Source: Asterionella formosa (taxonomy: Eukaryota). Taken from it: a stretch of DNA of 50,659 nt. The DNA lies in the NCBI GenBank assembly GCA_002256025.1, contig NKIB01013830.1, positions 1 to 50,659 on the forward strand, read 5' to 3'. Shown here one piece after another: positions 26,438 through 30,502 of the stretch. Each line of letters starts with the position of its first letter. The stretch's first letter is position 1. A model generated the notes under the pieces. It ran no database searches, was not told where the DNA came from, and saw nothing but the letters and a program-made list of their open reading frames with translations. The translations under genes were made by a program, and so were the position numbers.

Positions 26438-27018
26438 GGTTTGTTTACAAACTACCGGTATACACATACGATCCAAAAAGGAAGCAGGCACGTTTTGTAA
26501 AGTGTCAGAAGACATGCCAGTAAATTATTTCACAAGGATCTTTCTTCCATTTCTAGGTGCTGCCAGAGGCATTTTTTAGAAGCAATTTAGCTACCAGTAC
26601 CGGTACACGACATGATGTACACCGGTACCGGTACGGTAAATGAACAATACAGAAAGCAACGGGACACTGCCAGGAGTACGTAGCAGAGTACACCATGTCT
26701 GCTTTTTCTTGCACAGTAGCAAGCTTGATGATCATGAAGGAGTACCACTATAATCTACCAAATTTAAACAGTCAACTACCGGTATACTAGGTACGGCAAC
26801 CTACCTGGTACCTTCAGTTGCTGTGCCAAGTGCAGCATGCTTGTACAGCAATGAGCAGTGCCTCATTCACGCACTTTCTGAAAGTGCTTCAAAACGCAGA
26901 CTACGCTACCAGTAGTAGCGCTCTTTATTACACCAGAAATGAAAACAAAGACAAATGATCATCTTTGGGAAAACCTACAAATGGGTGTGAGTTGTACTAC
27001 ATACTCGTCTTATTCGCA

Positions 27019-30000
27019 TTAAGCAGTTGCGTAGAGAGCAAATGCCACTTGACTTCCAAATCCTGCTGCAAATCGCAGGGCATATTGACAGGCATACGGT
27101 CCTCCCTTGGAAATATTAAGTGTGCCCAAATACTCATCTGGTACCTGATAATTGGGAATAGGAGGTACACATTGTCGCATCAACACTTCTACCGCCGTCA
27201 CGTCTTCAAAGGAAACGCCCATGGGATGGCCTGTGAATCCTTTGGTATTCACAATAAGAAGCTTGGAAAGGAGTTCATCGCCAAAGGCAGATCGAAGCGC
27301 AGCAATTTCGTTGCCTGAGCAGCTGGATGCACTTGTGGCATGAGTGCATGTTTCGTGAGAAAAGTAGACTCCATGAGTCGCAATCTCAGCCTTGCTGATT
27401 CCGTGGACGAGCTCGACGTCTGTCAAGAAGCGAACAAGTTCAGAACCAATATGTTTCCGATCTAGAGCAGCTCCATGGAAGGCGGAATTGGAGTACTGAG
27501 TGGCCAATAAACGAGCCTTAACATCAAAAATTTGTGAGCTTTGACGTTCCATGCACGATTGCTCTGTTTCCAGAACCATACCAATAGCACCAGCGCCAAG
27601 CAACATTCCAGATCGACGCTTGTCAAATGGGCACGCCGCCAAGGCCACATCACCTTCAATGGAAGCAGCTCCAAGAGCGCGGAAACCAGCTCCAAGCCAC
27701 GGAAGAAGAGTATCACCAGACGCATTATCGCCTGCAACTACCACTACACGTTCAGCACGTCCTGAAATGAGCATATCCTGAGCCATGGCAATTGCTTGTG
27801 TAGTACCAGCGCATGCAGCATTGGTTTGAGTGTTGGGTCCGCGACATCCCGCCAACTGAGCCAGCTGAGCATTGCCCAAGACAAGGACACGAAACAAGAA
27901 TTTGCGGTCGAACGTATATGGACTGGTGACCTCGTGCTCTATATCCTTGGCACTGATTAATAAGCGAGCAAAAGCTGCCTCATCTTCATCTGATAGCGCT
28001 CCCTCTGGTGAATTTCGCAACACGCGAGATCGAAGGGCAGAAATCAATCTCATGGTATCAGCGGCACCCACCGTCTTACTTTGTAAAAACCGCATAACTT
28101 CACCGACAGCGGCATCCATTGCGGGAAATGAAGAAGCATATACAACACCAGTAGTGTCGCGATACTTCTCCGGGAGTTTCCAATCTTCTGGATTGTTTGT
28201 TATGCCACTGACAAGACCAGCGTTCTTCAGTGCCTCCATACCAGCTGCCACTGCCACTTGAGCTGCCACATCCATTGTCTCAGCCAATCCGCTTGGCACA
28301 CCATATGATGCTGTCAAGTCAATCTGTCCTAACTGTGCGGCCAACTTGATGGATGCGTCTTGAGTATCAACTGGCTCCTTTGTAGTCGATCCGTCATTGT
28401 TCTTCTTCAATTGCACCACATTTTTGTCCAACATAGCGGTCATTGTGGCTTCAGAAATGGCAGTTATGCATTGATCTCCTCGAATCAAACGTTCTAGGTT
28501 GCTTTCATCAAACACGTGTTTCCCTCCCGGTAATCCCGCCGCCGTTCCCGAAATGACACATGCAATTCTTCGGAGGGACTCGGTCGTAGCGTCCGTCCCG
28601 GTGGTCAAAACTTGCAGCTTGCCAGTGACTGGGATGGATACTGCGTCGAGTTTGGAATAGCGCAAAACAATGGGTGGTGCCAATGTGCTACCATGTGGCG
28701 CCATGGTAGCATCAAGCGGTACGCGACCGTAGGTACGTCTCCAGCTGGAATCAATACCTTGGAGGTAGTAGGTTCCAGGAAAGAGGCGACCAGTGGTGGG
28801 ATACACGGGAGAGTAGGGAGCGCCTGCTCGATGCATACGGGCCCTTGTTTCGAGCGCATGATCTAGCTCGGCTGGATGTACCAATTCGCGGGCGGCCAAA
28901 CGTTCCGATAATTTCAAGGCATTTACCATCTTGGCAATAGTGAATTCAGATTGAATGGGATCACGACTGTTGTTTGGTGTGAGTCATTGAAACATGAAGA
29001 CTTGCAGGAAATAAAAAAGAGTTATACAGTTTTTGACTCAACTTACACTTCAAGTCGGTACATGGTAGCCAGTGCCCCACTTCCGTAAGAGAAGACCACC
29101 ACGTTCTTGCCAGGCGTCAATTCCCCTCTTCCACCAGCACGGTCGACGAGACTCGCCAAACCCAAAAAAACGCTTGCTGTGTAGGTATTTCCCACCGCTT
29201 GCGATGCCGCATTTGAATCATGTAGGCATTTATTGTAGCTTTTCTGCGAGAGTTGTTGGAGTACCTTCTCTAATCCCTTGTCGGTGTAGGTGTCTTGCAG
29301 AGGCTTGGTAAGCCAGTCGCTGAGTGGATCATCGGCAGCTTCCTTCTTTTCTTCTTCCGTCTGGTTAAATGCCCTTTCTCTAGCATCCAAGAAGAACAGT
29401 CTAGCATATGATTTTTGCACTAACTTGTTATAAGGTGCATGGAAGACCATATAATCCGCCTGATCAGCCGTGAAGGGAGCATCCAACTTTCGCGTGAATC
29501 TTGTATACGTGTCTTCCAACGCTTGATAATAACACGTTTGACTCAAGGCTCCATCTACCACGGGATACTCCATCGATGGATCTGGCTTGAAAAAATCCCA
29601 CACATGACTTGCATGTGTTGCCCGTTCCTGCACCACCAACGGCGCATCCCTCCCCACCAAGATTGCCACTGCTCCGGCCCCACACGTGGGGCGAGCCGGT
29701 CCCCGCGCATAGGCGGCAATGTCCACTGCCACCACCAGAGCATAGCGGCCATCCCATCGTTCCGATTCCACCCAATGCAAGGCATTCAACAAGGCCGCTG
29801 TTCCGCCATAGCATGCGTTGACGACGGTTGCTCCTTCCATGTCCGAGTTCTCGGGAAATAGCTGCATGAGGACAGTCTTGGTTGATTTTGACTTGTCTAC
29901 CAACGTTTCCGTCCCCACTTGCAGGTGTCCCACGTCGTTGGGGTCAATATTGTAAGTCTCTAGTAGGTCATGCACGACGGTAAGGGCCAAGGAATTGACG

Positions 30001-30158
30001 TCTTCGTTGTCTCCGCAAACGGCCAAGCCGTGCTGACCCAAGCCAATGGTGAATTTGCCCGCTGGAACGCCTGAGTGCTCCTCTAGTTGGGATTGCAAGA
30101 TGTAGGTAGACGGCGTGTACACTTGCATAGCGAGGATTCCGACATTCTTTGATGTCAT
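27019..30158 (-). CDS. HMGS: HMG-CoA synthase fused to a C-terminal beta-ketoacyl synthase (KS) domain, ~1019 aa; exons 30158-29047, 28966-27019
   Basis: HMGS catalytic motifs GTETLVDKSKS (Glu), NACYGGTAAL (Cys), FHAPYNKLVQKS (His), GNTYTAS and FSYGSG. A GTAAGT...CTCAC...ACAG 80-bp intron joins the ORFs in frame. The HMGS C-terminal motif LFPGTYYLQGIDSSWRRTY lies in the same ORF as the KS motifs GPNTQTNAACAG, FSHETCT, TKGFTGHPMG and AAGFGSQ. Confidence 0.9.
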
Positions 30159-30502
30159 TGTGATGGCAAATGTTCTAGTTGTGTGCGTCTGAATGTGTAC
30201 CGCTTGGGCCTTGACAGCAACTGCAACAAGCACGACTTGAATTAGAACGTGGTTCGATGCTCACGAGACAGGAACCACCGACTATAAATTACAGATGAAC
30301 AAGTGAGTGGAAGGATGTGTTAGTGTCGATCCACGATAGCAGCAGTGGATGGTATAAAACGTCGACGTTGTGTAATGACAAGAAAAAGGAACCAATGCCG
30401 ATAGCATAAATACATACACAAAATAACCACATGCTAATGGTTCCTGGTCGTTTCACTGCATACCTGCACCTGCTGGATGCTGGTACCAGGTACCAGGTAC
30501 GA

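Follow-up and report, generated by a model that had tools for sequence, protein, structure and literature searches.

The window analysed here is the whole 50,659-nucleotide stretch (positions 1 to 50,659, forward strand) of contig NKIB01013830.1 from assembly GCA_002256025.1 of the diatom Asterionella formosa. Two adjoining stop-to-stop frames on its minus strand encode a 3-hydroxy-3-methylglutaryl-CoA (HMG-CoA) synthase (HMGS) fused to a ketosynthase (KS) of the FabF type, with the first frame (29043-30260) carrying the HMGS and the second (27019-28983) the HMGS tail and the KS. The gene is built up as follows, in positions of the window:

27019..30158, minus strand: HMGS-KS gene, full coding region (ATG 30158-30156, stop 27021-27019), with two exons and a spliced product of 1019 amino acids.
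29047..30158, minus strand: exon 1, encoding HMGS residues 1-370 and two bases of codon 371.
28967..29046, minus strand: intron of 80 nucleotides, GT..AG type (GTAAGT...ACAG).
28699..28966, minus strand: start of exon 2 and C-terminal end of the HMGS (residues 371-460, with LFPGTYYL and WRRTY), matching positions 207-279 of 280 of HMG_CoA_synt_C.
28573..28698, minus strand: linker, residues 461-502, conserved within diatoms only (57 % pairwise identity, as against 11-22 % to the distant fusions).
27022..28572, minus strand: FabF-type ketosynthase domain, residues 503-1019, assigned on a PF00109 match and the AlphaFold fold.

A sequence-only reading of this DNA had proposed that the HMGS and KS form one protein, independently of the intron call, and that the intron at 28967-29046 is spliced out. 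All of this is borne out, as the HMGS tail and the KS lie in the same stop-free frame and the RNA contigs of all four runs (three studies) remove exactly this intron, joining 28966 to 29047. At the junction, exon letters GAAGT are followed by the intron (GTAAGT...AACAG) and by TCGT of the second exon, with the frame kept (..YRLE-V-RDPIQ..). The spliced contigs reach depths of 695, 852, 47 and 11, whereas unspliced ones stay at 6-30; contigs from polyA RNA span 26900-30300 with both exons included. The spliced product is matched exactly by a database protein, P0003 (1019 amino acids, on a 3579-nucleotide contig). An artefact of gene modelling or assembly, by which two adjoining genes were merged, is ruled out by the shared frame, the identity of P0003 and the RNA joint, and is further opposed by the presence of all three families (the two HMGS families and the KS family) in a single protein for forty of the 120 listed relatives, several of them transcriptomic; the probability left to it is negligible. 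A minor second joint (28965-29041; 75 nucleotides skipped, ends AC..CA on the plus strand, depth of about 4) occurs in two runs of one study and may be an assembly or alignment variant. Single-base differences between the window and the RNA contigs of some runs, at 27484, 28379, 28462, 28468 and 28921 (G>A, T>C and A>G in runs X2/X3; G>A and A>G in run X7), are most simply explained as strain variation.

Residues 1-460 constitute a canonical eukaryotic HMGS. The product of the spliced gene matches HMG_CoA_synt_N (PF01154; 239.6 bits) and HMG_CoA_synt_C (PF08540; 187.9 bits in exon 1 and 36.1 bits in exon 2), while exon 1 alone scores 468.9 bits against the eukaryotic HMGS model TIGR01833 (cut-off 286.2). 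Among characterised enzymes, the HMGS half matches HMGS1 of Brassica (2f82; E 3.9e-112) and human HMGCS1 (E 1.6e-102). The catalytic tetrad of HMGS is described as Glu-Cys-His-Asn (PMC12960953), and alignment to plant HMGS1 places its members, given here with the tail motif, at the following codons:

29907-29909, minus strand: HMGS Glu84.
29811..29813, minus strand: HMGS catalytic Cys116 (NACYGG).
29439-29441, minus strand: HMGS His240.
29187-29189, minus strand: HMGS Asn324.
28729-28785, minus strand: HMGS tail motif.

In an alignment of forty-one full-length fusions, thirty-five of them from diatoms, Cys116, His240 and Asn324 are each present in forty rows and Glu84 in thirty-nine, with P0123 substituted and P0126 gapped at the latter position. 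The HMGS had been described from the letters as complete with its motifs, which agrees with a TIGR01833 score above the cut-off and with the four residues in place. Judged by sequence, the N-terminal half is a eukaryotic HMG-CoA synthase of the usual, primary-metabolism type.

The C-terminal half is matched weakly by ketoacyl-synt (PF00109; 42.2 bits over residues 503-1019) and scores under the cut-off of every curated ketoacyl-acyl carrier protein synthase (KAS) I/II model (113.5 against 493.75 bits for the FabF model TIGR03150). Its AlphaFold model is of high confidence (predicted local distance difference test, pLDDT, 90.4; predicted template modelling score, pTM, 0.87) and superimposes on many FabF structures with template modelling scores of 0.85-0.88, by target length. 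FabF/KAS II and the type II polyketide KSs share the fold of the KS half (Z 49-50, root-mean-square deviation 2.1-2.4, about 400 residues), with Z values of 50.0 for the actinorhodin KS and 49.2 for Escherichia coli FabF. The elements of the domain are:

27844..28131 (approximate), minus strand: helical insert of about 100-110 residues in the KS cap region (helices at model residues 160-250).
27811..27813, minus strand: KS active-site Cys756 (TNAAC), aligned to FabF Cys163.
27355..27357, minus strand: KS His908 (FSHET), first catalytic His, invariant among relatives.
27226..27243, minus strand: KS Lys946 (27241-27243) and His951 (27226-27228) in TKGFTGH, aligned to FabF Lys335/His340.
27058..27060, minus strand: KS gate Phe1007 (GFGS), invariant among relatives.

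With the thiolase fold, the Cys, two His, the Lys and the gate Phe in place, the domain belongs to the FabF-type (Cys-His-His) condensing enzymes in the wide sense. It has the Cys-His-His triad, Lys and gate Phe in common with FabF/KAS II, and differs in its identity of only about 20 %, in the extra helical insert of about 110 residues, in the fusion to HMGS and in having no known carrier partner. The insert has no counterpart in solved KS structures, none of which aligns over more than about 400 of the 525 residues; it is also carried by most of the prokaryotic megasynthase relatives considered below (single-stretch matches q13-521).

Conservation was assessed in a set of 142 relatives restricted to full-length KS matches (sixteen HMGS-fused, ninety megasynthase and thirty-six others), from which most near-identical diatom rows, three duplicates and all partial matches were excluded. 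Cys756, His908, Lys946, His951 and Phe1007 are unchanged in 142/142. The positions given earlier for the KS Cys, His, Lys and His and for the HMGS tail were all correct, including the choice of the FSHET His as the first catalytic His. HMMER had instead paired FabF His303 with the neighbouring His of CTHATS, a non-conserved position which is Pro in 89/90 megasynthase domains, unlike the FSHET His, invariant in all 142. Across the forty-one full-length fusions, the KS Cys, His, Lys and His are present in 41/41 and the gate Phe in 40/41 (P0125 being gapped), while mean pairwise identity among the thirty-five diatom rows is 78 % for the KS as against 73 % for the HMGS, and reaches 85 % in the KS core. 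By its residues and predicted fold, the KS half is a catalytically intact decarboxylating Claisen condensing enzyme of the FabF type.

Non-catalytic scaffolds do exist in the thiolase superfamily (PMC12960953), and the KS half might likewise be a scaffold, a malonyl-thioester decarboxylase or a sensor, comparable to the inactive HMGS-like partners in thiolase complexes of bacteria or to the Cys-to-Ser KS of beta-branching cassettes. This is very improbable, as scaffolds lose such catalytic residues, whereas here they are invariant in the 142 relatives, the nucleophilic Cys included, and the diatom core is 85 % identical; because of this pattern of conservation, the domain reads as a working enzyme. 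The retention of Cys756 was also, as had been argued, evidence against a pure decarboxylase, and places the domain outside the class of decarboxylating KSs in which the Cys is replaced (Cys-to-Ser/Gln). Loss of the triad in relatives was looked for, and the Cys-His-His is intact in each of the 142.

The sequence-only reading had further described a protein devoid of acyl carrier protein (ACP), acyltransferase (AT) and reductive domains. This description stands, with no match in the protein at E<=0.01 to the ACP, AT, reductase (ketoreductase, KR, included), thiolase (PF00108) or DUF35 families. A hidden ACP in the KS insert (LSDED) was considered and rejected, the candidate Ser being found in only 10/16 fusions and replaced by Arg or Lys in the megasynthases, with no PP-binding match. 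Matches of the KS in the ESM Atlas belong to KS families only.

The fusion is widespread. Among the best 120 listed of 441 relatives with E<=1e-5, 116 combine the HMGS C-terminal family with the KS and forty contain all three families in proteins of approximately 960-1140 residues, the remainder being mostly exon-2-sized metagenome gene calls. The sources include both pennate and centric diatoms (Fragilaria, Nitzschia, Cylindrotheca, Mayamaea, Entomoneis, Skeletonema, Thalassiosira, Cyclotella, Stephanocyclus, Leptocylindrus and Corethron), with more distant fusions in Phaeothamnion confervicola and Pythium insidiosum. The scan for conservation of the fusion suggested earlier thus recovers it in diatoms, Phaeothamnion and Pythium, and by this distribution it is old, predating the split of diatoms, phaeothamniophytes and oomycetes. 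Nor is the architecture new: two papers and the names of database entries already carry it. It has been on record since 2009 and 2014 for oomycetes, diatoms, Nannochloropsis and Ectocarpus (Morris et al., PMC2705460; Lu et al. 2014, PMC4052811), the genera named there being Phytophthora, Thalassiosira, Phaeodactylum, Nannochloropsis and Ectocarpus, and PF00109 is reported on the HMGS of Nannochloropsis oceanica and Ectocarpus siliculosus (Lu et al. 2014, PMC4052811). A search of a limited body of literature, without subscription papers, met the fusion in these two papers alone and found no experimental test of the KS half.

The age of the fusion bears on the possibility that it joins two independent enzymes on one polypeptide, with the KS serving a pathway of its own, perhaps with a carrier protein in trans, and the fusion serving only co-expression or co-localisation at a membrane, with no metabolite passed from one half to the other. 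In its favour, the linker is long and poorly conserved beyond the diatoms, and it is of low confidence in the AlphaFold model of the full-length protein (pTM 0.53), where it separates two well-folded domains and falls below a pLDDT of 50 at residues 478-503. Furthermore, in other eukaryotes the KS occurs alone or with other partners, and decay of the HMGS half can leave the KS intact. A fusion older than the diatom, phaeothamniophyte and oomycete split would, however, be unusual for unrelated activities, and the chemistry of the two halves is consecutive, so that we regard this arrangement as unlikely.

The ancestry of the KS was traced with a KS-only query against 1.84 billion representatives, which gave 501 matches below 1e-30. 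The best non-fusion matches share 40-46 % identity over nearly the whole domain of about 510 residues (about 400 bits), and the nearest relatives are the internal second KS (KS2) of prokaryotic proteins of 1600-3600 amino acids. These megasynthases have the order KS1-AT-KS2-ACP(n)-KR-DH (DH, dehydratase), frequently extended by a phosphopantetheinyl transferase at the C-terminus and in some cases by a FabK-like reductase at the N-terminus, and their best model is PfaA (968.7 bits; cut-off 1010.1). Their hosts are metagenome-assembled genomes labelled Thermoplasmatota, Heimdallarchaeota/Asgard and Bathyarchaeia, as well as Chloroflexota, Myxococcota, Acidobacteriota and Actinomycetota. The family is large, with 3899 matches below 1e-20 and at least 535 matched stretches in species-representative genomes; examples include the proteins P0137, P0138 and P0157 and the loci L001-L080 (e.g. 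L019:4926-14429). In 67/80 fetched loci the match lies at least 838 residues into a long frame, and seven of the other thirteen are cut by a contig end. The megasynthase of Ca. Oscillochloris fontis is flanked by an acyl-CoA dehydrogenase, a phosphopantetheinyl transferase and a carboxyltransferase. The PfaA-like KS2 shares the Cys-His-Lys-His-Phe set and most of the insert with the diatom KS, but stands beside AT and ACP domains, whereas the diatom KS lacks both and is fused to HMGS. Five systematic residue differences, none of them interpretable, separate the fused KS from the megasynthase KS2.

In a maximum-likelihood tree (61 rows, LG+G4), with which quick trees agree, KS2 and KS1 are split at 100/100. 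The eukaryote rows form a single clade of thirty-seven (100/100) inside the KS2 group and far from KS1, within which the HMGS-fused rows and six KS-only rows constitute a subclade of twenty-two (100/99); the attachment of the eukaryote clade among the prokaryotic KS2 is weakly supported (41-51). The KS of the window falls in this eukaryote clade, here termed KS2-type for convenience, with Fragilaria as its nearest row. Because the nearest relatives are KS2 domains upstream of ACPs in PfaA-like megasynthases, the ancestor of the KS was probably ACP-dependent.

Such kinship with chain-elongating domains of PfaA-like synthases would be expected if the KS made a different 3-ketoacyl thioester, from medium- or long-chain acyl-CoA or acyl-ACP in the manner of a membrane-associated elongase condensing enzyme or a polyketide KS, which the HMGS would then beta-branch or with which it would merely be co-located. 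Several features of the eukaryotic relatives point the same way. KS-only proteins occur within the fused subclade itself, in the pelagophyte Aureoumbra and the centrohelid Pterocystis, while the sister group comprises the haptophyte Prymnesium, the glaucophytes Cyanophora and Gloeochaete, Ceratiomyxa and proteins whose N-terminus weakly matches a methyltransferase. The KS-only forms begin with a Met followed by a hydrophobic anchor directly before the KS core, and so are not truncated fusions; such stand-alone, anchored KSs are P0386, P0130, P0150, P0169 and P0135, and the anchor suggests that they are attached to a membrane. An anchor precedes the HMGS half in two fusions (P0123 and P0127), and none is found in the proteins of the window or of Fragilaria. 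An N-terminal extension of at least 20 residues is present in 25/41 full-length fusions and absent from the window protein. Methyltransferase-like and glycosyltransferase fusions also count towards another product. Three proteins of the sister eukaryote clade (P0140, P0155 and P0270) have a weak N-terminal match to Methyltransf_11 (22 bits) and represent a second kind of fusion, and in the actinobacterium Nostocoides australiense Ben110 (L053:7584-11801) a KS of this type shares a frame of 1406 amino acids with a family-2 glycosyltransferase, with no ACP nearby.

The fusion protein P0123 retains the KS chemistry alone, with all four catalytic residues of the HMGS replaced (Ser, Lys, Asp and Gly) and the KS triad intact, which is likewise to be expected of a KS with another product. 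Its identity to the window protein is 34 % in the HMGS half and 61 % in the KS, and it groups weakly with Phaeothamnion (70/72). P0123 (1088 amino acids) is a single sequence on a 3767-nucleotide contig and has an N-terminal transmembrane-like segment. Retention of the fusion in N. oceanica, described as lacking the other steps of the mevalonate pathway (Lu et al. 2014, PMC4052811), speaks for another product as well. Set against this are the HMGS half, which is canonical and closest to the plant and human enzymes rather than to a beta-branching homologue, the lack of an ACP in the protein, and the product-substrate link through acetoacetyl-CoA, which accounts more simply for the fusion. A different product is therefore a real contender, though on balance an improbable one. 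New in these comparisons are the evidence for full catalytic constraint on the KS, its place in a clade that spans the eukaryotes and descends from the second KS of PfaA-like synthases, the anchored KS forms that stand alone, and the fusion whose HMGS half is dead.

Several known systems resemble the fusion in part. In archaea, thiolase is physically joined to HMGS, which overcomes the unfavourable first step (PMC12960953, citing Voegeli 2018). The archaeal thiolase/HMGS/DUF35 system thus joins a maker of acetoacetyl-CoA to HMGS, as is proposed below for the diatom fusion; it is, however, held together non-covalently and uses a non-decarboxylating thiolase on a DUF35 scaffold, whereas the diatom protein is a covalent fusion with a KS of the decarboxylating type. 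NphT7 of Streptomyces converts acetyl-CoA and malonyl-CoA to acetoacetyl-CoA and CO2, feeding the mevalonate pathway, and is a stand-alone, FabH-like enzyme (KAS III, Cys-His-Asn). The KS half is not of the FabH/NphT7 type, scoring only 17.7-25.5 bits against FabH models with cut-offs of 249-304, having a Cys-His-His triad and matching KAS III structures with Z of about 24.7, against 49-50 for the FabF type. The beta-branching cassettes of polyketide synthases include an HMGS homologue and a Cys-to-Ser KS, the latter only decarboxylating malonyl-ACP, with all partners acting on ACPs. Such a cassette likewise pairs an HMGS-type with a KS-type enzyme, but the diatom protein differs in its invariant KS Cys, its HMGS of the primary-metabolism type and its lack of an ACP. 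FabY of Pseudomonas aeruginosa, which exceeds FabF in size and belongs to the KAS I/II class (Cys-His-His), is primed with acetyl-CoA (PMC4549310); its extender is malonyl-ACP.

The gene product would be a bifunctional cytosolic enzyme, in which an acetyl group is loaded on Cys756 of the KS, a malonyl thioester is decarboxylated and acetoacetyl-CoA is released. The extender would most likely be malonyl-CoA, which is favoured because the protein lacks a carrier-protein domain. The fused HMGS would then condense the acetoacetyl-CoA with a further acetyl-CoA to HMG-CoA. In this way the formation of acetoacetyl-CoA would be made irreversible and be placed beside its consumer, with the intermediate either channelled or simply released nearby, and decarboxylation would do what complexing of thiolase and HMGS does in archaea. 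Malonyl-dependent synthesis of acetoacetyl-CoA feeding the fused HMGS is the most economical reading of the locus, and we put it forward tentatively, at rather less than even confidence. In its favour, a KS yields a 3-ketoacyl thioester, the class of compound on which HMGS acts, so that the two reactions are consecutive, and the fusion is old. Precedents are the coupling of the two steps in archaea (PMC12960953), the acetyl-CoA priming of FabY (PMC4549310) and, for the reaction itself though in another fold class, NphT7.

A number of points weigh against this proposal. Use of malonyl-CoA is unusual for a FabF-type KS. Kinship with the acetyl-CoA-primed FabY was considered and rejected, its structure 4cw4_A giving Z 32.8 at 17 % identity against Z 49.2 for FabF, and FabY is not among the KS sequence matches at E<=0.001. 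The domains are not confidently packed in the full-length model, although that model says nothing about docking or channelling either way. The ACP neighbours of the nearest KS relatives, and with them the probable dependence of the ancestral KS on ACP, stand against it too. For Phaeodactylum, a figure legend in a recent review still gives thiolase (AACT) as the entry reaction. According to Lu et al. 2014 (PMC4052811), N. oceanica keeps the fusion while the rest of its mevalonate pathway is reported missing, and a function unrelated to mevalonate was proposed there for the fusion. P0123, with its dead HMGS half, is a further counter-example, as are the stand-alone anchored KSs (Aureoumbra, Pterocystis and Prymnesium) and the methyltransferase-like and glycosyltransferase fusions; these stand-alone and otherwise-fused forms imply that the KS has a role independent of HMGS. 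None of these points contradicts acetoacetyl-CoA synthesis itself, but they show that supplying the mevalonate pathway is not the sole role of the KS, and they are compatible with the rival account in which it elongates other acyl thioesters.

The sequence-only reading, which had suggested that the KS may be a malonyl-CoA-dependent acetoacetyl-CoA synthase feeding the fused HMGS and bypassing thiolase, therefore holds in part. The fusion, the canonical HMGS and the constrained KS support it, whereas a purely mevalonate role does not accord with N. oceanica, P0123, the stand-alone KSs and the ACP-adjacent relatives, and the interpretation appears plausible yet too narrowly tied to mevalonate. 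In a broader form, a eukaryote-wide, carrier-independent FabF-type enzyme descended from a PfaA-like KS2 would act as an irreversible, malonyl-CoA-driven acetoacetyl-CoA synthase, fused to HMGS in stramenopiles, where it would replace or by-pass thiolase at the committed step into HMG-CoA, and supplying some other acetoacetyl-CoA- or HMG-CoA-derived product in lineages without mevalonate. This wider account is possible but doubtful.

The neighbours of the gene within the window are unrelated, ordinary nuclear genes, encoding ribosomal protein uS5, Vps4, a GYF protein, an APP1-like phosphatase, Iwr1, a 2-oxoglutarate oxygenase, RNase PH, ERCC4 and an ATP-grasp protein. In an AT-richer stretch, a minus-strand open frame at 12249-13256 matches Plant_tran / DDE_Tnp_4 (PIF/Harbinger-type transposase).

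Textbook mevalonate schemes, and diatom reviews with them, start with thiolase. If the KS does form acetoacetyl-CoA from malonyl-CoA as proposed, the route to isoprenoids and sterols in diatoms, brown-algal relatives and oomycetes would open with a driven step, paid for in ATP and linked to acetyl-CoA carboxylase. The equilibrium problem of thiolase would then have a second answer, reached independently of the archaeal complex and of NphT7. Flux models and strategies for terpenoid engineering in Phaeodactylum and related hosts would change accordingly, and oomycete pathogens would be seen to possess a lineage-specific enzyme. Should this reading fail, the KS clade still represents a conserved, uncharacterised condensing enzyme across many protist groups.

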